Part shown: positions 3,627-22,994 of the stretch, piece by piece
Layout of the letters: each line of letters starts with the position of its first letter
Numbering within the stretch: position 1 is the stretch's first letter
IMG/VR virus record: IMGVR_UViG_2529293215_000019
Reading direction: 5' to 3' (one strand)
DNA from: a virus
Taxonomy: Duplodnaviria; Heunggongvirae; Uroviricota; Caudoviricetes
DNA length: 29,656 nucleotides
Made by a program: the position numbers and the translations under genes
The notes under the pieces: generated by a model
Seen by the model: the letters and a program-made list of their open reading frames with translations, nothing else
Told to the model about the DNA's origin: nothing
The model's database searches: none

Positions 3627-5898
3627 AGCCTCCGGGCGTTTTGTCCCTCCGTCAGCATTTGCCGCAGGCACCGGTAAGACGTTTACCGGTGCTTATGCAT
3701 GGAACGCGCCACGCGAGGCCGTCGGGCGCGAAAGACCCCTTACACGTGACGAGATGCGTCAGGTGCAAGGTGTTTTATCCACGATTAACCGCCTGCCTTA
3801 CTTTTTGCGCTCGCTGTTTACTTCACGCTATGAATACATCCGGCGCAATAAAAGCCCGGTGCACGGGTTTTATTTCCTCACATCCACTTTTCAGCGTCGT
3901 TTATGGCCGCGCATTGAGCGTGTGAATCAGCGCCATGAAATGAACACCGACGCGTCGTTGCTGTTTCTGGCAGAGCGTGACCACTATGCGCGCCTGCCGG
4001 GAATGAATGACAAGGAGCTGAAAAAGTTTGCCGCCCGTATCTCATCGCAGCTTTTCATGATGTATGAGGAACTCAGCGATGCCTGGGTGGATGCACATGG
4101 CGAAAAAGAATCGCTGTTTACGGATGAGGCGCAGGCTCACCTCTATGGTCATGTTGCTGGCGCTGCACGTGCTTTCAATATTTCCCCGCTTTACTGGAAA
4201 AAATACCGTAAAGGACAGATGACCACGAGGCAGGCATATTCTGCCATTGCCCGTCTGTTTAACGATGAGTGGTGGACTCATCAGCTCAAAGGCCAGCGTA
4301 TGCGCTGGCATGAGGCGTTACTGATTGCTGTCGGGGAGGTCAATAAAGACCGTTCTCCTTATGCCAGTAAACATGCCATTCGTGATGTGCGTGCACGCCG
4401 CCAGGCAAATCTGGAATTTCTTAAATCGTGTGACCTTGAAAACAGGGAAACCGGCGAGCGCATCGACCTTATCAGTAAGGTGATAGGCAGTATTTCTAAT
4501 CCTGAAATTCGCCGGATGGAGCTGATGAACACCATTGCCGGTATTGAGCGTTACGCCGCAGCAGAGGGTGATGTGGGGATGTTTATCACGCTGACCGCGC
4601 CGTCAAAGTATCACCCGACACGTCAGGTCGGAAAAGGCGAAAGTAAAACCGTCCAGCTAAATCACGGCTGGAACGATGAGGCATTTAATCCAAAGGATGC
4701 GCAGCGATATCTCTGCCATATCTGGAGCCTGATGCGCACGGCATTCAAGGATAATGATTTACAGGTCTACGGTTTGCGTGTCGTCGAGCCACACCACGAC
4801 GGAACGCCGCACTGGCATATGATGCTTTTTTGTAATCCACGCCAGCGTAACCAGATTATCGAAATCATGCGTCGCTATGCGCTCAAAGAGGATGGCGACG
4901 AAAGAGGAGCCGCGCGAAACCGTTTTCAGGCAAAACACCTTAACCGGGGCGGTGCTGCGGGATATATCGCGAAATACATTTCAAAAAATATCGACGGCTA
5001 TGCACTGGATGGTCAGCTCGATAACGATACCGGTAAGCCGCTTAAAGATACTGCCGCGGCTGTTACCGCATGGGCGTCAACGTGGCGCATCCCGCAATTT
5101 AAAACGGTTGGACTGCCGACAATGGGGGCTTACCGTGAACTACGCAAATTGCCTCGCGGCGTCAGCATTGCTGATGAGTTTGACGAGCGCGTCGAGGCTG
5201 CACGCGCCGCTGCAGACAGTGGTGATTTTGCGTTGTATATCAGCGCGCAGGGCGGGGCAAATGTCCCGCGCGATTGCCAGACTGTCAGGGTCGCCCGTAG
5301 CCCGTCGGATGACGTTAACGAGTACGAGGAAGAAGTCGAGAGAGTGGTCGGCATTTACGCGCCGCATCTCGGCGCGCGTCATATTCATATCACCAGAACG
5401 ACGGACTGGCGCATTGTGCCGAAAGTTCCGGTCGTTGAGCCTTTGACTTTAAAAAGCGGCATCGCCGCGCCTCGGAGTCCTGTCAATAACTGTGGAAAGC
5501 TCATCGGTGGTGATACTTCGTTACCGGCTCCCACGCCTTCTGAGCACGCCGCAGCAGTGCTTAATCTGGTTGATGACGGTGTTATCGAATGGAATGACCC
5601 GGAGGTCGTGAGGGCGCTCAGGGGCGCATTAAAACACGGCCTGAGAAGACCAAACCGTCAGCAAAGAAACGGAAGCCCGTTAAAACCGCATGAAATAGCG
5701 CCATCGGCCAGACTGACCCGGTCGGAAAGAATGCAAATTACCCGTATCCGCGTTGACCTTGCTCAGAACGGTATCAGGCCGCAGCGATGGGAGCTTGAGG
5801 CGCTGGCGCGTGGTGCGACCGTAGATTACAACGGGAAAAAATTTACGTATCCGGTCGCTGATGAGTGGAGTTGGTTTTATTGTTATTCAGAGCAATAA
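3616..5898 (+). CDS. A: rolling-circle replication initiation endonuclease (P2 gpA-like)
   Basis: ORF of about 760 aa from the first ATG (3616; the track start at 3574 is TTG); contains a paired-tyrosine segment AGYIAKYISKNIDGY typical of rolling-circle initiators; position and size match P2 gene A. Confidence 0.88.
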   Translation: MAVKASGRFVPPSAFAAGTGKTFTGAYAWNAPREAVGRERPLTRDEMRQVQGVLSTINRLPYFLRSLFTSRYEYIRRNKSPVHGFYFLTSTFQRRLWPRIERVNQRHEMNTDASLLFLAERDHYARLPGMNDKELKKFAARISSQLFMMYEELSDAWVDAHGEKESLFTDEAQAHLYGHVAGAARAFNISPLYWKKYRKGQMTTRQAYSAIARLFNDEWWTHQLKGQRMRWHEALLIAVGEVNKDRSPYASKHAIRDVRARRQANLEFLKSCDLENRETGERIDLISKVIGSISNPEIRRMELMNTIAGIERYAAAEGDVGMFITLTAPSKYHPTRQVGKGESKTVQLNHGWNDEAFNPKDAQRYLCHIWSLMRTAFKDNDLQVYGLRVVEPHHDGTPHWHMMLFCNPRQRNQIIEIMRRYALKEDGDERGAARNRFQAKHLNRGGAAGYIAKYISKNIDGYALDGQLDNDTGKPLKDTAAAVTAWASTWRIPQFKTVGLPTMGAYRELRKLPRGVSIADEFDERVEAARAAADSGDFALYISAQGGANVPRDCQTVRVARSPSDDVNEYEEEVERVVGIYAPHLGARHIHITRTTDWRIVPKVPVVEPLTLKSGIAAPRSPVNNCGKLIGGDTSLPAPTPSEHAAAVLNLVDDGVIEWNDPEVVRALRGALKHGLRRPNRQQRNGSPLKPHEIAPSARLTRSERMQITRIRVDLAQNGIRPQRWELEALARGATVDYNGKKFTYPVADEWSWFYCYSEQ

Positions 5899-5970
5899 AC
5901 ATCTGATTTAATTTGTTGCATAATAGTAAAATTGCTGTTTATCTGCATGTGGTAACTATTGATAATTATG

Positions 5971-5998
5971 TTGCTAATAATGTGTGCAAATTTATACT
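5971..5998 (+). promoter_or_regulatory. candidate sigma70 promoter for the cargo gene
   Basis: TTGCTA (5971-5976), 16-bp spacer, TATACT (5993-5998), in a very AT-rich 116-bp leader; followed by AAGGTGA SD and ATG at 6015. Confidence 0.5.
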
Positions 5999-6014
5999 GA
6001 AAAAGGTGAAAACG

Positions 6015-7847
6015 ATGAATGATATCTTTGTTCTTACAAGGGAAGAGCTTGAAACACTAGATTATAGTGTTTTTATGCATATACCAGTTACATTTCATGC
6101 ACATAAAATAAAAAAATATCTGGATGGGATTGCTGAATCATCAGAAAACCCCAAAGAGAAAAAATTAGCATCTCTTTTTGGTATGCTATATAGTTTCAAT
6201 TTGCAAGTTGTTAACAACACTCCATCATTTGAACCCCAAATGATTTGGGGTAATAAAAGATCAATATTGCCTGAAGATTTTGATGAGCAGGTGAATGACT
6301 GTCTTTTATATGTTTCTCAAAAAATAACCAATCCATTTTTGTTATCAAGAATATATGATGTTGTTTGGTGTAATAATCGGAAAAATAAAGACGTGGCAAT
6401 TAAAGCAATTGATTCCTATGCTGAAATGCTAAATATAGCAATTGAAAGACTAATAATAAAAAACGAAAGCATGGATGAAAGTGATTTAAATTGCTTTATT
6501 TTTGCTCGTGATTATATTGCTAGGGCTTTGCACATTAATAAAATGGTCTACCCTAGAAAATCAGAAGGAAACATGGCGATTAAAAATGCCATTCATTCTC
6601 TTTATAGTATTCAAAATGAAAGATTAATCTTTGAAGGTTTCAATAATTTGACTTGGTTTATGGTGCGTGATTTTGATGGGTATAATCTGCAGTATGCGGA
6701 AAATGCTGAGAAGATGGCTGAGCAGCATAAAGATAAAAAATATTATGATGCTGTAAAATCACTTTATATGACAAGTGCAGTTATTTATGAAAAAAATGGT
6801 GAGTATGAACGTGCCAAGAGATGTAAACTGGCATCTGCAAATATTACTATTAAAGTTGCAACAGATCGACCTGATAATATGGGTAAGATCTCTTGGTTAA
6901 GAACAGCTATCTCTGAATTAAGACAGTACGGTGGTGATAGCCAACAGATAGAAGATTTAAAGGAACAACTTGCTAATTTGAGAGAAGAAGTAAGGAGTGA
7001 ATATGTCACTTTAAGCCATTCTATTGATATTAGTGACTTGGTTGCTGAAAGTGAAAAAAAACTGACGGGGCGTTCTTTGCCCGATATATTCAAAGTTTTA
7101 ATGCGTGAAACACCGATTGAAAATATTGAAAGCATGAGGGAGCAAGTTTTAAGATTATCAGAAAAAAGTTTATTCTCTAGTTTTGTTGGAACAGAAATTA
7201 ATGATGAGAGTGGGCGTAAGGTATATACAATCCCGCCGTTGGATAATAAAAAAGATATGAGTGATGATGTTGTTATTGATCAATATCTAAGAAATTTCGA
7301 GATTACTCATAAGATTTTTGTAAACGGTGTCTTTGAACCTGCTCGCTATGTACTTTCTCAAGAACATGGCTTGACGTTGTCAACATTCGTTAAATTAGTT
7401 ACAACTAGTCCAATTGTCAAGCCGGAGTTTAGGGAGATTTTTAATTTGGGCTTTTACAAATTATGGCAGGGAGATTACATCAGTGCAGCTTATCTTTTAA
7501 TACCACAAATGGAAGGTATGGTTCGTTATTATTATGAGCTTAGTGGAAAGGATGCTACTAGATATTTGGATAAGGGATTAGAGGAGTCAACAAGTATTTC
7601 TCAGCTTCTAGATAAATGCAGAGATGATTTGGAAAGTATCTTTTCTAAGAATCTTGTTTTAACTATCGATGTTCTTTTTAATAGAAAGAGTGGGGCAACC
7701 TTAAGACATAAATTAGCACATGGTAATTTATATACTAATGCTTGTTACGATGAAACAACGACATATGCATGCATCCTGATTTTCTTTCTGTGTGCTTATC
7801 CTCTCCTACCATATTTTGATACTGTATTTGAACAGGGCTCTGTTTGA
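6015..7847 (+). CDS. hypothetical 610-aa protein in the A-cos variable locus; candidate anti-phage defence / abortive-infection protein with C-terminal HEPN-like R-x4-H motif
   Basis: Long uninterrupted ORF; first ATG at 6015 with AAGGTGA SD (track start at 5913 is TTG); markedly AT-rich by eye versus GC-rich flanking phage genes; occupies the P2 tin/old position; RHKLAHG motif at 7704-7724. No family recognised from sequence alone. Confidence 0.8.
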   Translation: MNDIFVLTREELETLDYSVFMHIPVTFHAHKIKKYLDGIAESSENPKEKKLASLFGMLYSFNLQVVNNTPSFEPQMIWGNKRSILPEDFDEQVNDCLLYVSQKITNPFLLSRIYDVVWCNNRKNKDVAIKAIDSYAEMLNIAIERLIIKNESMDESDLNCFIFARDYIARALHINKMVYPRKSEGNMAIKNAIHSLYSIQNERLIFEGFNNLTWFMVRDFDGYNLQYAENAEKMAEQHKDKKYYDAVKSLYMTSAVIYEKNGEYERAKRCKLASANITIKVATDRPDNMGKISWLRTAISELRQYGGDSQQIEDLKEQLANLREEVRSEYVTLSHSIDISDLVAESEKKLTGRSLPDIFKVLMRETPIENIESMREQVLRLSEKSLFSSFVGTEINDESGRKVYTIPPLDNKKDMSDDVVIDQYLRNFEITHKIFVNGVFEPARYVLSQEHGLTLSTFVKLVTTSPIVKPEFREIFNLGFYKLWQGDYISAAYLLIPQMEGMVRYYYELSGKDATRYLDKGLEESTSISQLLDKCRDDLESIFSKNLVLTIDVLFNRKSGATLRHKLAHGNLYTNACYDETTTYACILIFFLCAYPLLPYFDTVFEQGSV

Positions 7848-12079: not shown

Positions 12080-13153
12080 ATGCGCCAGGAAACCCGCTTT
12101 AAATTTAATGCTTACCTGTCCCGTGTTGCCGAACTGAACGGCATCGACGCCGGTGATGTGTCGAAAAAATTCACCGTTGAACCGTCGGTCACCCAGACCC
12201 TGATGAACACCATGCAGGAGTCCTCTGACTTTCTGACCCGCATCAACATTGTGCCGGTCAGCGAAATGAAAGGGGAAAAAATTGGCATCGGTGTCACCGG
12301 CTCCATCGCCAGCACCACCGACACCGCCGGTGGCACCGAGCGCCAGCCGAAGGACTTCTCGAAGCTGGCGTCAAACAAGTACGAATGCGACCAGATTAAC
12401 TTCGATTTTTATATCCGCTACAAAACGCTGGACCTGTGGGCGCGTTATCAGGATTTCCAGCTCCGTGTCCGTAACGCCATTATCAAACGCCAGTCCCTTG
12501 ATTTCATCATGGCCGGTTTTAACGGCGTGAAGCGTGCCGAAACCTCTGACCGCAGCAGTAACCCGATGCTGCAGGATGTGGCGGTCGGCTGGCTGCAGAA
12601 ATACCGCAATGAAGCCCCGGCGCGCGTGATGAGCAAGGTCACTGACGAGGAAGGTCACACGACCTCTGAGGTCATCCGCGTGGGTAAGGGCGGTGATTAT
12701 GCCAGCCTCGATGCACTGGTGATGGATGCGACCAACAACCTGATTGAGCCGTGGTATCAGGAAGACCCTGACCTTGTGGTGATTGTGGGGCGTCAGCTAC
12801 TGGCGGACAAGTATTTCCCCATCGTCAACAAGGAGCAGGACAACAGCGAAATGCTGGCCGCTGACGTTATCATCAGCCAGAAACGCATCGGTAACCTGCC
12901 GGCGGTACGCGTCCCGTACTTTCCGGCGGATGCGATGCTTATCACGAAGCTGGAAAACCTGTCCATCTACTACATGGATGACAGCCATCGCCGCGTGATT
13001 GTGGAAAACCCGAAACTCGACCGCGTGGAGAACTACGAGTCAATGAACATTGATTACGTGGTGGAAGACTACGCCGCCGGTTGTCTGGTGGAAAAAATCA
13101 AGGTCGGTGATTTCTCCACACCGGCTAAGGCGACCGCAGAGCCGGGAGCGTAA
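12080..13153 (+). CDS. N: major capsid protein (P2 gpN-like)
   Basis: 357 aa, the length of P2 gpN; ATG at 12080 preceded by AGGAAAAA. Confidence 0.9.
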   Translation: MRQETRFKFNAYLSRVAELNGIDAGDVSKKFTVEPSVTQTLMNTMQESSDFLTRINIVPVSEMKGEKIGIGVTGSIASTTDTAGGTERQPKDFSKLASNKYECDQINFDFYIRYKTLDLWARYQDFQLRVRNAIIKRQSLDFIMAGFNGVKRAETSDRSSNPMLQDVAVGWLQKYRNEAPARVMSKVTDEEGHTTSEVIRVGKGGDYASLDALVMDATNNLIEPWYQEDPDLVVIVGRQLLADKYFPIVNKEQDNSEMLAADVIISQKRIGNLPAVRVPYFPADAMLITKLENLSIYYMDDSHRRVIVENPKLDRVENYESMNIDYVVEDYAAGCLVEKIKVGDFSTPAKATAEPGA

Positions 13154-13156
13154 CCG

Positions 13157-13900
13157 ATGACGAGTCCCGCACAGCGCCACATGATGCGGGTCTCGGCAGC
13201 GATGACCGCGCAGCGGGAAGCCGCCCCGCTGCGACATGCAACTGTCTATGAGCAGATGCTGGTCAAGCTGGCCGCAGACCAGCGCACACTGAAAGCGATT
13301 TATTCAAAAGAGCTTAAGGCCGCGAAAAAGCGCGAACTGCTGCCGTTCTGGTTGCCGTGGGTGAACGGTGTGCTGGAGCAGGGCAAAGGTGCACAGGATG
13401 ACATTCTGATGACGGTCATGCTGTGGCGTCTGGATACCGGCGATATTGCCGGTGCGCTGGAGATTGCCCGTTATGCCCTGAAGTACGGTCTGACCATGCC
13501 GGGTAAACACCGCCGCACCCCGCCGTACATGTTCACCGAGGAGGTCGCACTCGCGGCCATGCGCGCTCACGCTGCCGGTGAATCTGTGGATATCCGCCTG
13601 CTGACGGAGACCCTTGAACTGACCGCCACGGCTGACATGCCTGATGAAGTGCGCGCAAAGCTGCACAAAATCACCGGTCTGTTTCTGCGTGACGCTGGTG
13701 ATGCCGCCGGTGCGCTGGCTCACCTGCAACGTGCGACACAGCTCGACTGTCAGGCAGGCGTCAAAAAAGAGATTGAACGACTGGAGCGGGAGCTGAAACC
13801 GAAGCCGGAGCCGCAGCCAAAAGCGGTCACCCGCGCCCCGCGTAAGACCCGGAGCGTGACACCGGCAAAACGTGGACGCCCGAAAAAGAAAGCCAGTTAA
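13157..13900 (+). CDS. M: terminase small / endonuclease subunit (P2 gpM-like)
   Basis: 247 aa, the length of P2 gpM; basic Lys/Arg-rich C-terminal tail. Confidence 0.85.
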   Translation: MTSPAQRHMMRVSAAMTAQREAAPLRHATVYEQMLVKLAADQRTLKAIYSKELKAAKKRELLPFWLPWVNGVLEQGKGAQDDILMTVMLWRLDTGDIAGALEIARYALKYGLTMPGKHRRTPPYMFTEEVALAAMRAHAAGESVDIRLLTETLELTATADMPDEVRAKLHKITGLFLRDAGDAAGALAHLQRATQLDCQAGVKKEIERLERELKPKPEPQPKAVTRAPRKTRSVTPAKRGRPKKKAS

Positions 13901-13999
13901 CAACCGAATGCGCCCCGCGCCAGGGCGGCACGCCGGTCAGTGAGGGTGAATCACCTGACACTGCACCGGCGTCCACCGCCCGACTTTTCAGAGGTAGTC

Positions 14000-14509
14000 A
14001 TGATGACGCTGATTATTCCGCGAAAGGAGGCTCCCGTGTCCGGTGAGGGGACGGTGGTCATCCCGCAACCGGCAGGCGACGAGCCGGTGATTAAAAACAC
14101 GTTCTTTTTTCCCGATATCGACCCGAAGCGCGTCCGGGAACGTATGCGCCTTGAGCAGACCGTCGCCCCCGCCCGTCTGCGTGAGGCCATCAAGTCAGGC
14201 ATGGCGGAGACGAATGCGGAGCTGTACGAGTACCGCGAACAGAAAATTGCCGCCGGTTTTACGCGTCTGGCGGACGTCCCGGCGGACGATATCGACGGTG
14301 AAAGCATCAAGGTTTTTTACTACGAGCGCGCCGTGTGTGCGATGGCGACCGCATCGCTTTATGAGCGTTATCGCGGCGTGGATGCCAGTGCGAAAGGCGA
14401 CAAGAAGGCTGACAGCATTGACAGCACCATTGATGAACTTTGGCGGGATATGCGCTGGGCGGTGGCGCGTATCCAGGACAAGCCGCGCTGCATCGTGAGT
14501 CAAATCTGA
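14000..14509 (+). CDS. L: head completion / stabilisation protein (P2 gpL-like)
   Basis: 169 aa from the ATG at 14000 (GAGG SD), the length of P2 gpL. Confidence 0.85.
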   Translation: MMTLIIPRKEAPVSGEGTVVIPQPAGDEPVIKNTFFFPDIDPKRVRERMRLEQTVAPARLREAIKSGMAETNAELYEYREQKIAAGFTRLADVPADDIDGESIKVFYYERAVCAMATASLYERYRGVDASAKGDKKADSIDSTIDELWRDMRWAVARIQDKPRCIVSQI

Positions 14510-14712
14510 TGAAGACCTTTGCGCTACAGGGCGACACGCTCGACGCCATCTGTGTCCGGTATTACGGGCGCACTGAGGGCGTGGTCGAGGCCGTGCTCGC
14601 CGCAAATCCGGGACTGGCTGAACTGGGTGCGGTGCTGCCGCACGGCACCGCCGTCGAACTGCCCGACGTTCAGACCGCGCCCGTGGCTGAAACTGTCAAT
14701 CTGTGGGAGTAA
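14509..14712 (+). CDS. X: small tail protein (P2 gpX-like)
   Basis: 67 aa from the ATG at 14509, which overlaps the L stop (TGATG); same size as P2 gpX. Confidence 0.8.
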   Translation: MKTFALQGDTLDAICVRYYGRTEGVVEAVLAANPGLAELGAVLPHGTAVELPDVQTAPVAETVNLWE

Positions 14713-14715
14713 CGC

Positions 14716-14997
14716 ATGACAGCAGAAGAAAAAAGCGTCCTGTCGCTTTTCATGATTGGGGTGCTGATTGTTGTCGGCAAGGTGCTTGCCGGTGGTGAAC
14801 CCATCACCCCGCGTCTGTTTATCGGGCGCATGTTGCTCGGTGGTTTTGTCTCGATGGTTGCCGGTGTTGTTCTGGTTCAGTTTCCTGACCTGTCACTGCC
14901 TGCGGTGTGCGGCATCGGCTCCATGCTGGGTATCGCCGGTTATCAGGTGATTGAGATTGCCATTCAGCGCCGCTTTAAGGGCAGGGGGAAACCGTAA
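14716..14997 (+). CDS. Y: holin (P2 gpY-like)
   Basis: 93 aa with hydrophobic transmembrane stretches (LSLFMIGVLIVVGKVLAGG, LLGGFVSMVAGVVLV); directly upstream of the endolysin gene. Confidence 0.8.
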   Translation: MTAEEKSVLSLFMIGVLIVVGKVLAGGEPITPRLFIGRMLLGGFVSMVAGVVLVQFPDLSLPAVCGIGSMLGIAGYQVIEIAIQRRFKGRGKP

Positions 14998-19326: not shown

Positions 19327-19930
19327 TTCGCGACTGCTGCCGACCGGCTCATCACCGCTTGAAGTCGCCGCCGCAAAAGCCTGTGCGGAAATTGAAAAAA
19401 CGCCGGTCAGTATTCGTGAGCTGTGGAACCCGGATACCTGTCCGGCAAATCTGCTGCCGTGGCTGGCGTGGTCATTTTCGGTTGACCGCTGGGATGATAA
19501 ATGGCCGGAAGCGACAAAACGCGCTGTTATCCGCGATGCGTATTTCATTCACTGCCATAAGGGTACTATAGGCGCAATCCGGCGTGTGGTGGAGCCGCTC
19601 GGCTATCTGATTGAGGTGAGGGAGTGGTGGCAGCTCAACGAGGAGCCGGGGACGTTCCGCATCGTTGTTGGCGTGCTTGAGCAGGGTATTACCGAGGAAA
19701 TGTATCAGGAGCTGGAGCGTCTCGTTGCTGATGCAAAACCGGCAAGCCGCCATCTGACGGGACTGGCTATCAGTTTAAGTACAACCGGCAACATTTTTGC
19801 CGGTGCGGGATGCTATCACGGTGACGCCCTGACGGTTTATCCCTACACCCCGGAGGCCATTATTGTCGGAGGGGATTATTTCCCGGCCTCGGCCATTCAT
19901 TTAATTGATAACCTGAGAGTAAACGCATGA
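19319..19930 (+). CDS. I: baseplate protein (P2 gpI-like)
   Basis: 203 aa; ATG at 19319 overlaps the J stop and the stop overlaps the H start; somewhat longer than the 176 aa I recall for P2 gpI. Confidence 0.8.
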   Translation: MSDSRLLPTGSSPLEVAAAKACAEIEKTPVSIRELWNPDTCPANLLPWLAWSFSVDRWDDKWPEATKRAVIRDAYFIHCHKGTIGAIRRVVEPLGYLIEVREWWQLNEEPGTFRIVVGVLEQGITEEMYQELERLVADAKPASRHLTGLAISLSTTGNIFAGAGCYHGDALTVYPYTPEAIIVGGDYFPASAIHLIDNLRVNA

Positions 19931-21120
19931 CAGTGAAATACTACGCCATTCTGACTAATCAGGGCGCAGCACGGCTGGCTAACGCGACGATGCTCGGCAG
20001 TAAGCTGAATCTGACGCAAATGGCCGTTGGTGATGCGAATGGTGTCTTGCCGACACCAGACCCGGCACAGACAAAACTGATTAACCAGAAACGCATCGCG
20101 CCGCTGAATCTTCTGAGTGTTGACCCGAACAACCAGAGCCAGATTATTGCGGAGCAAATCATCCCTGAGAACGAGGGTGGATTCTGGATCCGTGAGATTG
20201 GGCTTTATGATGATGAAGGCGTACTCATTGCGGTGGCGAACTGCCCGGAAACGTACAAACCGCAGTTGCAGGAAGGCAGTGGTCGTACCCAGACTATCCG
20301 CATGATTCTGGTTGTCACGAATACCGAAGCTATCACGCTGAAAATCGACCCGTCGGTGGTACTGGCGACCCGTAAATACGTGGATGATGAAGTCCTGGAA
20401 TTAAAGCTGTATGTGGATGACCAGATGAGAAACCACATTGCCGCACAGGATCCTCATACCCAGTATGCGCAGAAACATAATCCGACATTTACCGGAGAAC
20501 CAAAAGCGCCGACGCCTGCCGCAGGAAATAACACCACGCGGATTGCGACCACTGAGTTTGTTCAGGCCGCTATTACCGCTCTGATTAACGGTGCGCCAGC
20601 CACGCTGGACACACTGAAAGAAATTGCCGCAGCCATTAACAATGACCCGAAATTCAGTACCACCATTAACAATGCGCTGTCAGGTAAGCAGCCACTGGAT
20701 GAGACGCTGACTCATTTGAGTGGAAAGGATGTTGCCGGTCTTCTCGCATACCTTGGTTTGGGAGAAGCGGCAAAACGGAATGTAGGTAACGGGCAAAACC
20801 AAATTCCGGATATGGCGGCGTTTGCCAGTTCACTTTCATCAACGGGTTTTCAAAAACTTCCTTCAGGTCTGATTATTCAGTGGGGTATTGTCAGTGGAGC
20901 ATCAAACTATACGGTGACTTACCCGGTAACATTCCCAAATCGTTCACTTGCGCTGTTGGCTGTGCCACATACAACGTCGGTGGCTGGTATATCTGCAATG
21001 GGCATAGCGAACTGTTCTGATATCAGCAAATCACAGTTCTATATAATTGTTGGCGGTATATCTCAGGGAGAAATTGTCAAATATGAAAGATCCTGTTTTT
21101 GGGTAGCAATCGGTGTATAG
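19927..21120 (+). CDS. H: tail fibre protein (gpH-like), constant N-terminal part fused to invertible C-terminal variable part
   Basis: 397 aa; ATG at 19927; the last ~110 codons lie inside the invertible segment, downstream of the 34-bp repeat at 20753-20786. Confidence 0.8.
   Translation: MTVKYYAILTNQGAARLANATMLGSKLNLTQMAVGDANGVLPTPDPAQTKLINQKRIAPLNLLSVDPNNQSQIIAEQIIPENEGGFWIREIGLYDDEGVLIAVANCPETYKPQLQEGSGRTQTIRMILVVTNTEAITLKIDPSVVLATRKYVDDEVLELKLYVDDQMRNHIAAQDPHTQYAQKHNPTFTGEPKAPTPAAGNNTTRIATTEFVQAAITALINGAPATLDTLKEIAAAINNDPKFSTTINNALSGKQPLDETLTHLSGKDVAGLLAYLGLGEAAKRNVGNGQNQIPDMAAFASSLSSTGFQKLPSGLIIQWGIVSGASNYTVTYPVTFPNRSLALLAVPHTTSVAGISAMGIANCSDISKSQFYIIVGGISQGEIVKYERSCFWVAIGV
20753..20786. 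repeat. left 34-bp inverted repeat (invertase crossover site) inside gene H
   Basis: TTGGTTTGGGAGAAGCGGCAAAACGGAATGTAGG; the perfect reverse complement occurs at 22300-22333. Confidence 0.8.
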
Positions 21121-21128
21121 GTATATCT

Positions 21129-21524
21129 ATGATTTATTTCTCAAAATCGACTAATGGTTTTTTCTTTGATGGTATAAACAGCGACATGCCTGCTGACATT
21201 GTTGAGATAAGTACAGACTTATACAATGAATTAATTGCCGGACAGCAGGAAGGGGGTAAATTAATCACGTCAGATGAAAATGGTTTACCGGTACTGAAAT
21301 CTCCGGCGATTGATTATGTCGCACGTGCTGAAAATCAGCGAATGCAGTTACTTGCTCATGCCGATAATGTCACAGCTGACTGGCGGGTGGAATTAATGCT
21401 TGGTGATATCAGCAGTACAGATAAAGAAAAACTATCTGCCTGGATGGACTACAAAAAAGAAGTAAAAGCCGTCGACACTTCGACGGCTCCTGAGATTAGC
21501 TGGCCTGAGTTACCGGAGGTGTAG
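21129..21524 (+). CDS. tail fibre assembly protein (Tfa, orientation 1)
   Basis: 131 aa from the first ATG (21129), directly after the H stop; C-terminus VDTSTAPEISWPELPEV resembles the conserved Tfa C-terminal segment and is shared with the minus-strand copy. Confidence 0.7.
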   Translation: MIYFSKSTNGFFFDGINSDMPADIVEISTDLYNELIAGQQEGGKLITSDENGLPVLKSPAIDYVARAENQRMQLLAHADNVTADWRVELMLGDISSTDKEKLSAWMDYKKEVKAVDTSTAPEISWPELPEV

Positions 21525-21939
21525 GCCATTCAATATCTGGAGCACTGGAGGTATCCACCAGTTCCAGTGCGTCCAGGTAATCCAGCCACAAATTATATTG
21601 CGCCAGTTCCTCACCTTTCAGACGACCAATAGCTGCTTTGCCAGGCCATTGCTTACTGTTCATGTATTCGTTAGCCTGGTTAATTAGTAGCTGTCTTTCT
21701 GATTCAGTAATTTCAATAAGCTCTTCATGCGTGGGTGGAGGAATATCTGCCCACGCAGGCAGCCCATCATCTCCGGCAATACGGATTTTTCCTTGTGGCG
21801 GTTCAGCCATAAACTCACTGATAATATTTTGATTTACTTCCTTAGCGTCTGATAAATCCCATCCCTCTGATTTATATTTATCAATCATATCCACAGGGAA
21901 AAAAGCATTATGCCTTGCGCTATAAACATATTCGTTCAT
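21496..21939 (-). CDS. tail fibre assembly protein (Tfa', orientation 2)
   Basis: 147 aa from the ATG at 21939 (GGGTGA SD; track start at 21948 is GTG); C-terminus VDTSSAPDIEWPTPPV parallels the plus-strand Tfa; 3' end overlaps the plus-strand tfa by 29 bp. Confidence 0.65.
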   Translation of the reverse strand: MNEYVYSARHNAFFPVDMIDKYKSEGWDLSDAKEVNQNIISEFMAEPPQGKIRIAGDDGLPAWADIPPPTHEELIEITESERQLLINQANEYMNSKQWPGKAAIGRLKGEELAQYNLWLDYLDALELVDTSSAPDIEWPTPPVTQAS

Positions 21940-21959
21940 ATAAATCACCCTGAATAAAA

Positions 21960-22333
21960 TTACTCACCAACAGCCCACCAACTGTAATTCATCGATACTG
22001 TGGAGCTGGTTGATGCAGTTCTGTAAGCGGAATTAAAACCGGTTAGTGTTGGACCTTCTGCAGTCATCACGAATCCCCGTCCAGCGCCTAAAGGCGCACC
22101 ACCATCACCAGAATGGGTAAGCATGGCGCAGTCCACTTTTTTAGGAAAAGGGATGCTGAATGTAATTCTCATTGTTTGCGTCGATAATGTCGGCGTAATC
22201 GCACCACGACCATATTGCAGGATTTTCCCGTTGGGTAATTTCATCCATCCATCACCACTGGCAAAAGAGGTCATGTCCGGTATCTGATTTTCCCCCGTTC
22301 CTACATTCCGTTTTGCCGCTTCTCCCAAACCAA
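21960..22333 (-). other. alternative tail-fibre C-terminal coding segment (Hv'), without its own start; fused to H only after inversion
   Basis: Minus-strand reading frame through the right repeat encodes [24 protein letters not shown]..., paralleling the H segment [25 protein letters not shown]... after the left repeat; stop at 21960-21962. Confidence 0.65.
22300..22333. repeat. right 34-bp inverted repeat (invertase crossover site)
   Basis: Reverse complement of 22300-22333 is identical to 20753-20786. Confidence 0.8.
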
Positions 22334-22400
22334 CGTTTATGAAAATGCAGAGATAACGGGCAAGTGGCATCATCTCCGGTTTTTATTCAGGGGGATGCTC

Positions 22401-22994
22401 ATGCTTATTGGCTATGTACGCGTGTCGACAAATGACCAGAACACGGAATTGCAGCGTAACGCGCTGGAGTGCGCAGGATGCGAGCGGATTTTTGAGGATA
22501 AAATCAGCGGCACGAAGTCCGACCGACCGGGACTGAAAAAACTGCTCAGAACATTATCAGCAGGTGACACTCTGGTAGTCTGGAAGCTGGACAGGCTGGG
22601 GCGTAGTATGCGGCATCTGGTCATTCTGGTTGAGGAACTGCGCGAACGCGGCGTTAATTTTCGCAGCCTGACAGATGCTATTGATACCAGCACGCCGATG
22701 GGGCGTTTTTTCTTTCATGTGATGGGTGCCCTGGCTGAAATGGAACGAGAGCTCATTGTCGAGCGGACTCGGGCCGGGCTGGAAGCGGCCAGAGCCAAAG
22801 GTCGTATTGGTGGCAGACGTCCTAAACTCACCGCGAGTGAGTGGGAGCAGGCCGGGCGTTTGCTGGCTGCAGGGGAGTCACGTCAACGCGTGGCACTGAT
22901 TTTTGATATTGGTCTGTCCACGCTCTATAAAAAATTTCCCTCATCAGCGACAAAGAATAAATTGTGTCATCCCTTAGCCAACCGGGACAAATAG
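22401..22994 (+). CDS. serine recombinase DNA invertase (Gin/Cin/Pin/Hin family)
   Basis: N-terminus MLIGYVRVSTNDQNTELQRNAL with the catalytic-serine motif, and HTH-containing C-terminus LSTLYKK, closely resemble Mu Gin; AGGGGGA SD upstream of the ATG at 22401; adjacent to the invertible segment. Confidence 0.9.
   Translation: MLIGYVRVSTNDQNTELQRNALECAGCERIFEDKISGTKSDRPGLKKLLRTLSAGDTLVVWKLDRLGRSMRHLVILVEELRERGVNFRSLTDAIDTSTPMGRFFFHVMGALAEMERELIVERTRAGLEAARAKGRIGGRRPKLTASEWEQAGRLLAAGESRQRVALIFDIGLSTLYKKFPSSATKNKLCHPLANRDK

Follow-up and report, generated by a model that had tools for sequence, protein, structure and literature searches.

Switches that exchange the end of a tail-fibre gene by inverting a DNA segment are already well described in phage Mu, in the cryptic prophage e14 and in other P2-like prophages. 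In the G segment of Mu (S/U versus S'/U'), the alternative ends lie between 34-bp terminal inverted repeats; the constant Sc part is encoded beyond them, and the invertase gene adjoins the segment on its right. The P segment of e14 in E. coli K-12 (stfP-tfaP / tfaE-stfE, pinE) runs from the constant fibre part through tip, chaperone, opposed chaperone and opposed tip to the invertase, and spans 1,797 bp (PMC12529663). Hin, which acts on the H segment of Salmonella, belongs to the same enzyme family; its sites are 26 bp long and its gene contains a Fis enhancer (PMC3798978), but it flips a promoter and is encoded inside its own segment. Experimental evidence of inversion in P2-like prophages comes from enteropathogenic E. 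coli (EPEC), where coexisting variants were seen by sequencing and PCR (PMC4272514); for Fels-2 of Salmonella it has been inferred from a comparison of the LT2 and LT7 genomes (PMC7953296). The loci of Fels-2 (with the Pin/Fin homologue STM2702) and of EPEC E2348/69 belong to the same phage family as the one described here and likewise combine an invertase with alternative fibre C-termini; those of E2348/69 have two or three repeats, one of them three repeats and four variants. A preprint further notes, for the Z/fun hotspot of P2-like phages, that invertases occur there and that neighbouring genes are inverted. P2 itself (NC_001895) has a single assembly gene, G, lacks an invertase, carries fun(Z) in its place between G and FI, and encodes a fixed H of 669 aa (12734-14743), a length that had been given correctly in an earlier note on this DNA.

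The locus examined here is a known kind of element and, given the EPEC (PMC4272514) and Fels-2 (PMC7953296) examples, its arrangement is not unusual for P2-like prophages. The window (the whole stretch of 29,656 bp that was analysed) is a prophage of E. coli O157:H7 whose P2-like backbone looks complete from integrase to ogr, in contrast to e14, which is a defective remnant, and to Mu, whose backbone is that of a transposing phage. Its genes follow the P2 order (int, C, cox, B, A; Q-P-O-N-M-L; lysis genes; V-W-J-I-H; FI-FII-E-T-U-D-ogr), as seen both in the map of open reading frames and in the RefSeq annotation of an identical prophage, and Pfam matches include integrase, Cox, GPA, Tail_P2_I, sheath, GPD and Ogr/Delta. 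The region of the pF late promoter and the start of FI are nearly identical to those of P2. The window belongs with the P2-like phages (Peduoviridae), in agreement with the P2-like prophage of the earlier note.

Beyond the constant part of H, a 1,581-bp segment (20753-22333) is bounded by perfect inverted repeats of 34 bp, the left copy (TTGGTTTGGGAGAAGCGGCAAAACGGAATGTAGG) being the exact reverse complement of the right one at 34 of 34 positions. Such a pair would be expected by chance about 1.5e-12 times in 29,656 bp, and a 17-mer derived from the repeat occurs exactly twice in the window against 0.08 expected in shuffles. Less perfectly, the repeat extends to 89 nt at 81% identity (20741-20829 and 22257-22345). 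Encoded in the segment are, on each strand, one gp53-like fibre tip and one tail-fibre assembly gene (Table 1). All coordinates that the earlier note had given for repeats and open reading frames agree with ours; its description of the repeats as flanks was right in position but not in placing them outside the segment, since they form the terminal parts of the invertible unit itself.

Table 1. Features of the invertible tail-fibre locus (positions within the window)
Feature	Position	Strand	Remarks
H, current orientation, 397 aa	19927..21120	+	from ORF list
Constant N-terminal part of H, codons 1-275	19927..20752	+	baseplate-attachment domain and shaft
Left 26-bp crossover site	20741..20766		TTCTCGCATACC TT GGTTTGGGAGAA; core 20753-20754
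Left perfect 34-bp inverted repeat	20753..20786		inner part of crossover site plus conserved coding sequence
Variable tip A, now expressed as C-terminus of H	20787..21120	+	PF21882 Gp53-like_C, E=4e-14
Assembly (chaperone) gene A, cognate to tip A	21129..21524	+	PF02413 Caudo_TAP, E=2e-24
Terminator-like hairpin and T run	21464..21491	-	consensus scan; just past stop of assembly gene B
Assembly gene B, cognate to tip B	21496..21939	-	PF02413, E=2e-31
Variable tip B, now in unexpressed slot	21960..22299	-	PF21882, E=7e-13
ORF in silent slot, 135-137 aa	21960-22373	-	13-residue leader from outside the segment plus the facing tip
Right perfect 34-bp inverted repeat	22300..22333		
Right 26-bp crossover site	22320..22345		TTCTCCCAAACC AA CGTTTATGAAAA; core 22332-22333
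Spacer, right site to invertase gene	22346..22400		holds minus-strand ATG (22373)
Serine DNA invertase, Pin/Gin/Cin/Hin family	22401..22994	+	alternative ORF start 22395
Putative recombinational enhancer	22423..22485		Fis-consensus-like 15-mers at 22423-22437 and 22471-22485

Straddling the outer edges of the 34-bp repeats are two 26-bp crossover sites, in each of which a 2-bp core separates two 12-bp half-sites. They are inverted relative to each other, so that the cores TT and AA on the plus strand match once read in inverted orientation. Compared with their counterparts in the e14 P segment, the right site matches at 26 of 26 positions and the left site (in e14, CTCTCGAAAACCTTGGTTTGGGAGAA) differs at 3 of 26. 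They also align with gixL and gixR of Mu, the right one at an equal distance from the invertase gene, and the left one with a gix-like vestige that P2 H retains at the corresponding place. Differences from Mu lie in the core dinucleotide (TC in Mu, TT here) and in the inner half-site (GGTTTACAGGAA in Mu, GGTTTGGGAGAA here). Strand exchange is expected at the 2-bp cores, and cleavage would thus fall at the outer edge of the 34-bp repeats. No further crossover sites were found within the window, which has two only, unlike the three-repeat locus of E2348/69.

The constant part of H matches PF12571 Phage_tail_fib over residues 1-150 (E=1e-62) and is 42% identical to residues 27-255 of P2 H, in an alignment that reaches the YLGL motif. 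Because the break at codon 276 falls within a motif conserved in both arms, the N-terminal 275 residues are fused in frame to either tip: H has 397 aa in the current orientation, as reported earlier, and 399 aa after the segment is flipped in silico, an ORF that is also present in strain SS TX 754-1. The central proposal of the earlier note, that two alternative C-terminal segments on opposite strands are exchanged on the constant N-terminus of H, therefore holds, with both in-frame products occurring naturally and both tips belonging to Gp53-like_C. The peptides it had quoted past the repeat, including NVGNGQNQIPDMAAFAS, are present, and the similarity of the two tips fades after about 30 residues.

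The two tips circulate in other phages. A tip identical (100%) to tip A is carried by phages Cartapus and vB_EcoM-613R3, and a 97% identical counterpart of tip B is found in Citrobacter phage Omnitron and, as the expressed tip, in phage pro483. Tip A was thus found in Escherichia phages and tip B also in a phage of Citrobacter braakii, a distribution that hints at differing host ranges; the host-range switch proposed in the earlier note stays a putative one. Among solved structures, the AP22 tail fibre (4MTM) resembles tip A weakly (E=7e-5) and a short tail fibre resembles tip B weakly (E=0.02), matches too weak to assign either tip a receptor. By BLASTP, neither tip matched StfP or StfE of e14 at E<1e-3.

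Each tip is followed by its own assembly gene, both of the Caudo_TAP family and on opposite strands as described earlier, and the two genes overlap convergently by 29 bp. Their products are 24% identical to each other; close resemblance to the e14 chaperones was seen for the product of assembly gene B only (51% to TfaP). When the segment is flipped, the terminator-like hairpin beyond assembly gene B would close off the H operon; the same consensus scan found no clear terminator after assembly gene A in the present orientation.

Both orientations of the segment, which the earlier note had thought detectable within a population, were found by comparing near-identical prophages across public genomes. 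When the window was flipped in silico at 20753-22333, it matched E. coli O157:H7 SS TX 754-1 at 100% in one piece of 3,068 bp. Over 15,068 bp, differences between the window and this strain were confined to 20787-22299, and flipping its segment back left 1 mismatch; the constant part of H is unchanged between the two states. Isolates AC-5 and AC-3, which come from the same soil source and have the locus at the same coordinates, showed 0 mismatches over 19,068 bp once the segment was flipped. Among the complete public E. coli genomes carrying this pair of cassettes, 11 have the orientation of the window and 15 the other. Strains F8092B and TB21-1 are further carriers. These results support that the segment inverts in nature. 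The near-even split, and the flip between isolates that otherwise show no differences, suggest that switching is frequent, and such close isolates would be consistent with switching within one clone.

The natural occurrence of both states bears on two other accounts of the locus. One would see it as a frozen relic, a duplicated fibre end left by a decayed switch that no longer inverts, and many invertible regions of prophages are indeed annotated as pseudogenes, e14 stfE for example. We give this virtually no credence, as it is contradicted by the two orientations in near-identical prophages, including the isolates identical over 19 kb, and as all open reading frames and both crossover sites are intact. 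The other account attributes the two orientations to RecA-dependent homologous recombination between inverted repeats of 34-89 bp instead of site-specific recombination. Perfect identity over 34 bp is about the minimum length for RecA-mediated exchange, and any crossover within the perfect repeat yields the same product, so that comparisons of genomes fit both routes. General recombination at such short repeats would not, however, be expected to switch frequently, and the locus has canonical 26-bp sites, an adjoining intact invertase of the Pin type and enhancer-like sites; we hold the RecA route to be very unlikely.

The invertase has domains PF00239 Resolvase (E=8e-53) and PF02796 HTH_7 (E=1e-12), matches the Gin structures 3UJ3/4M6F over its full length (E=1e-94), and shares 86.7% identity with PinE and 80.1% with Gin. 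Invertases of the Hin/Gin/Cin/Pin group have about 190 aa, with the active-site serine near residue 9-10. The enzyme encoded here fits this profile of a small serine recombinase, with a catalytic N-terminus, an active-site serine (in MLIGYVRVS) and a C-terminal helix-turn-helix. The earlier note had named a single observed orientation together with an inactive or truncated invertase as what would count against a working switch; the reading frame is full length and keeps the catalytic serine, and the recombination machinery, as far as can be read from its sequence, is intact.

On sequence grounds, the nearest relative of the locus is the Pin/P-segment system of e14 and not Mu: the invertase is closer to PinE (87%) than to Gin (80%), and the right site is identical to that of e14. 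The two loci have the same gene order, and their DNA is homologous (79%) over a stretch that takes in the right site and the invertase gene. The comparison with the Mu G segment drawn in the earlier note was sound for the type of switch, with its shared mechanism, layout and 34-bp terminal repeats, but not for Mu as the nearest relative. The Mu segment is also larger (about 3 kb, with large tips), whereas the segment here is 1.6 kb with gp53-like tips of about 110 residues.

Inside the 5' part of the invertase gene, two 15-mers resembling the Fis consensus have their centres 48 bp apart and lie about 97 bp from the right crossover core. A degenerate form of the consensus fits both and a strict form fits the second. 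They sit at nt 30 and 78 of the gene, as in Mu gin, e14 pinE and the T22 phage, although they fall in codons of highly conserved residues, so their conservation may reflect constraint on the protein alone. Their distance recalls a 48-bp rule for the spacing of Fis sites that is reportedly due to Johnson, Glasgow and Simon in 1987. By analogy with related systems, inversion would depend on Fis. An enhancer within the invertase gene has been described for Mu (Kahmann 1985, as cited in PMC3798978).

The adjoining invertase is probably the enzyme that flips the segment in vivo. One could instead suppose that inversion is carried out mainly in trans by Pin-family invertases of other prophages in the host, with the adjoining gene dispensable or inactive. 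The O157:H7 genomes that carry the prophage do contain several related loci (3-6 matching places per record); inversion of the e14 P segment is reported for each of PinQ, PinR and PinE, and inversion of the Salmonella H segment for Fin of Fels-2 (PMC12529663). The right crossover site is the one found in e14, and the comparison of orientations among genomes fits a local invertase and a related one elsewhere alike. Nonetheless, the local protein is full length, keeps its catalytic serine and its DNA-binding domain, and shares 80-87% identity with active enzymes, and its position next to the right site with enhancer-like sites inside the gene is the canonical arrangement in cis; action mainly in trans therefore seems improbable to us.

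Against this observed background of anatomy, family assignments, in-frame fusions and two natural orientations, the locus is very probably a two-state site-specific inversion switch of the Hin/Gin/Cin/Pin family, set in the tail-fibre operon of a P2-like prophage that looks complete. In the mechanism that we propose, dimers of the invertase would bind the two inverted 26-bp sites, and these, on the model of Hin and Gin, would synapse on a Fis-bound enhancer in the 5' part of the invertase gene. All four strands would be cut at the 2-bp cores, and a 180-degree rotation of one half of the complex followed by religation would invert the 1,581 bp. Depending on orientation, the constant 275-residue part would be joined to tip A or tip B, giving an H of 397 or 399 aa respectively, and the matching assembly gene (A or B) would come next downstream. 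Unlike Hin, the enzyme is encoded outside the segment, and the flip exchanges coding ends. The virions released from a population of lysogens would then bear either of two receptor-binding tips, a form of bet-hedging on host range, although prophages of the P2 type are hard to induce.

The tip in the slot opposite to H might also be made. Read from its own ATG, 28 nt past the crossover site, the ORF in this slot has counterparts in e14, which also has an ATG-bearing leader beside its invertase: stfE and Mu S' share the arrangement and a conserved ATGCCA, and PGAP annotates the product in both states. Moreover, inversion of the e14 P segment driven by PinQ is reported to give StfE2, which blocks adsorption of T2 (PMC12529663). 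Conceivably, then, the benefit could lie mainly with the lysogen, the product acting, as is claimed for StfE2, as a free receptor-binding domain that masks a surface receptor and blocks other phages. A broader version would have a gp53-like domain made by the lysogen in a slot that is not silent, the switch toggling receptor masking or superinfection exclusion; Pin enzymes of other prophages could drive it, since the right site is identical to that of e14. Several observations weigh against these readings. A scan for a sigma-70-like promoter of the ORF gave nothing convincing, and a GGAG abuts its ATG, a poor spacing for a ribosome-binding site. The conserved bases are equally explicable as the promoter of the invertase: a TGGCAT(C/G)AT element in the spacer is conserved across the window, e14, Mu and the T22 phage, and may be its extended -10. 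As the prophage looks complete, a role of the tips in the virion requires no extra assumption. We rate a benefit mainly to the lysogen as quite improbable, and a toggle of masking or exclusion as having a low probability, and continue to favour the switch of virion tips.

As a clean, intact example of a textbook mechanism, the locus has little discovery value, but some practical value. In the other orientation, the annotation pipeline splits H into a "pseudogene" and an orphan ORF, so that calls of prophage intactness in O157:H7 depend on an arbitrary switch state. The segment is likewise a source of assembly and typing differences among otherwise identical outbreak isolates. Each small gp53-like tip, together with its matching chaperone, makes a compact, naturally swappable receptor-binding module.

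Some relatives, such as MLI108K1, have about 590 bp extra, which we considered as a third cassette or a shufflon; this DNA is AT-rich, is inserted between the right site and the invertase, and encodes a 105-aa non-fibre protein rather than a third tip. The locus of MLI108K2, looked at as another possible rearrangement, is annotated as frameshifted and fragmentary, and may represent the assembly of a mixed population.

The earlier note's description of the ends of the segment was exact: 22300-22333 is the reverse complement of 20753-20786 at 34 of 34 positions, with an imperfect extension of the inverted repeat (89 nt, 81%). Chance would produce about 1.5e-12 perfect 34-bp inverted pairs in a window of this size, and a 17-mer derived from the repeat occurs at only two places in the window, both of them the repeats themselves (0.08 expected). 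The reading frames proposed for H, two assembly genes and an opposed minus-strand tip also agree with our ORF map. By Pfam, H combines an N-terminal tail-collar fibre domain with a C-terminal Gp53-like_C domain, the opposed ORF of tip B (the alternative tip, in the slot beside the invertase) matches Gp53-like_C, both assembly genes match Caudo_TAP, and the next gene (22395-22994) matches Resolvase and HTH_7. Similarity between tip B and tip A, the current C-terminus of H, fades past the repeats as claimed, with 51% identity over ~69 residues, chiefly in the first 30, followed by divergence. Assembly proteins A and B are 24% identical. Mu genes U and U' are separated by 28 bp, whereas the corresponding genes in the window overlap.

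Features of the invertible fibre segment and its flanks (window coordinates unless indicated)
Feature	Position	Strand	Size or sequence	Remarks
H	19927-21120	+	397 aa	From ORF map
Assembly gene A	21129-21524	+		Convergent with B; 29-bp overlap at 3' ends
Assembly gene B	21496-21939	-		Convergent with A
Tip B ORF	ends at 21960; within repeats 21960-22299	-
Left crossover site	20741-20766		TTCTCGCATACC-TT-GGTTTGGGAGAA	3 positions differ from e14 left site; aligns with Mu gixL
Right crossover site	22320-22345	+	TTCTCCCAAACC-AA-CGTTTATGAAAA	Identical to right site of e14 P segment; aligns with Mu gixR
Slot-ORF extension with ATG	22346-22373; e14 (L012) 3632-3656; Mu (L004) 4526-4554	- (window)		ATG within conserved TGGCAT(C/G)AT

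We reversed 20753-22333 in silico, which yields an in-frame H of 399 aa, and searched complete E. coli genomes with a 3,068-bp query across the locus (19927-22994) in both versions. The window's version matched E. coli O157:H7 F8092B and TB21-1 at 100%, and F8092B differed from the window by one base over 15 kb. The flipped version gave a single-piece match to O157:H7 SS TX 754-1, with 100% identity across the whole 3,068 bp. Over 15,068 bp, differences between SS TX 754-1 and the window were confined to 20787-22299, the interval between the perfect repeats, and one mismatch was left when the segment was flipped back. Likewise, AC-5 and AC-3, two isolates of one soil source, have the prophage at identical coordinates but in opposite orientations; once the segment was flipped, 0 differences remained over 19,068 bp. 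Among genomes with this cassette pair, 11 had the window's orientation and 15 the other, so that both of the orientations the earlier note had proposed to look for in a population are present across public genomes. This is strong comparative evidence, between genomes rather than within one culture, that the segment switches often and has done so recently. A frozen relic is excluded by the opposite orientations in SS TX 754-1 versus the window and AC-5 versus AC-3.

Annotation outcome for H varies with switch state. In the other orientation (SS TX 754-1, L002 6001-7200; AC-3, L008/L011; equivalent to window 19927-21120), RefSeq splits H into a pseudogene, marked incomplete, and a second feature named 'gp53-like domain-containing protein', although the 399-aa ORF is continuous.

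The invertase aligned end to end with crystallised Gin (3UJ3, 4M6F; E=1e-94) and retains the catalytic serine within MLIGYVRVS. The element functions like the Hin/Gin/Cin/Pin invertase systems by which phages switch fibre tips, and is one of them. The earlier reading of a Mu G-segment-like cassette was right as to the fibre switch, but the nearest relative is Pin of the cryptic K-12 prophage e14 (86.7% identity to PinE) and not Mu Gin (80.1%). Each functional site, as judged by sequence, is a 26-bp element that spans the outer edge of one perfect repeat. Two 15-mers within the invertase gene fit the degenerate Fis consensus; their centres, at gene nt 30 and 78, lie 48 bp apart, and Mu gin, e14 pinE and the phage from E. 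coli O157:H43 T22 have them at the same gene positions. Enhancer Fis sites follow a 48-bp spacing rule. The Mu enhancer is located within gin, and Hin employs two Fis sites (PMC3798978). An enhancer inside the invertase gene is likely but unproven, since the Fis-like bases also encode conserved residues.

Related loci vary around the right site. The T22 phage (KC618326; L001 4398-4440) has a right crossover site with a different outer half-site, GGTATGCGAGAA, and 3 bp after it comes CGTTTATGAAAA, which in the window forms the outer half of the right site; this looks like a scar of cassette exchange. In the related prophage of E. coli MLI108K1 (L009 5420-6060), a ~590-bp AT-rich insertion encoding a 105-aa protein, no function assigned, lies between right site and invertase, and the invertase 5' end differs. 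In MLI108K2 (L010), another isolate sharing the strain prefix and source description of MLI108K1, the locus is fragmentary and carries frameshifts, which may reflect a mixed-orientation population at assembly.

In the proposed mechanism, invertase dimers bound at the two sites would come together in a synapse with the Fis-bound enhancer, cut the 2-bp cores, rotate and rejoin the strands, thereby inverting 1,581 bp. Tip A or tip B would then be fused to the 275 constant residues of H, each with its matching assembly gene directly downstream. Homologous exchange by RecA within the 34-bp repeat would lead to an identical product, but leaves the canonical sites, the adjacent enzyme and the near-even split of states unexplained. 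Invertases of other prophages could also flip the segment in trans, given several related loci per carrier genome and documented cross-action among invertases (PMC12529663). Assembly gene B is followed on the minus strand by a terminator-like hairpin, so that after inversion the operon would end there; a scan found no clear terminator after assembly gene A. The hairpin (21464-21491) sits within the 3' end of plus-strand assembly gene A.

By analogy with Mu and P1, switching would be expected to change host range. Tip A is present in Escherichia phages and tip B also in a Citrobacter braakii phage, a distribution that gives only a hint as to host range. Matches of both tips to solved structures were weak.

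In the window, e14 and Mu alike, the ORF of the unexpressed slot continues for 25-29 nt past the crossover site (for Mu, past the annotated boundary of the G segment) up to an ATG. According to a 2025 report (PMC12529663), inverting the e14 P segment generates StfE2, a product that prevents T2 from adsorbing. A comparable free product here seems very improbable: the slot ORF has an ATG of its own, 28 nt beyond the site and shared with e14 and Mu, but its ribosome-binding context is poor, a scan found no promoter for it, and the conserved TGGCAT(C/G)AT could either provide the start codon or act as an extended -10 for the invertase.

Invertible fibre loci of this kind have precedents in P2-like prophages. 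In EPEC E2348/69, sequencing and PCR detected coexisting variants of two P2-like prophages, two in one and four in the other (PMC4272514), and a comparison of Salmonella LT2 with LT7 showed an inversion of the Fels-2 fibre (PMC7953296). A survey recorded invertases with inverted neighbours in the P2 Z/fun hotspot, and a domain-wide screen of programmed inversions recognises phage tail genes as one class of target (PMC9881135). The arrangement is thus already documented in P2-like prophages, some part of the query was matched in about 3,160 of 5,426 complete E. coli genomes, and the element counts as already known.

The window spans a P2-like prophage, with integrase (1-996) at one end and ogr (29375 onward) at the other. 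Its early genes are C and Cox, then a 166-aa ORF where P2 has gene B, then A; after these, the order of the capsid, lysis and tail genes is that of P2 (ORF map, Pfam and RefSeq annotation of the same prophage). P2 has a fixed 669-aa H, as the earlier note held, and a single G gene plus fun(Z) where the window phage carries the switch. From ~22962 on, the window carries the pF late-promoter region of P2 together with its annotated activator-binding site, and is near-identical to P2 through the start of FI. This conserved region supplies the final ~11 codons of the invertase ORF and its stop codon (22962-22994), so the invertase tail marks the right junction of the inserted module; likeness to Gin stops at residue 184 of 199.

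P2 H itself holds TTATCGAATATCTCGGTTTACAGGAAACGGTAAACCG (L006 2357-2395, ~codons 376-387), near-identical to Mu gixL plus inner flank, at codons homologous to the window's left crossover site, yet P2 has no invertase. Fibre genes have long been held to be exchanged at a gix-like motif, and the P2 sequence fits that view. In phage Cartapus, which carries tip A and its chaperone, homology begins at query position 827, window 20753, the crossover core.

A 644-aa ORF (5913-7847, plus strand) occupies the position of the P2 old/tin accessory hotspot, with replication gene A on one side and portal gene Q on the other. It has hits to DUF7380 (E=4e-39) and, in PADLOC, to PDC-S39, a candidate defence family (E=3e-84). 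At this position the related prophage of AC-3 has a different gene, which encodes an AAA ATPase and lies on the opposite strand.
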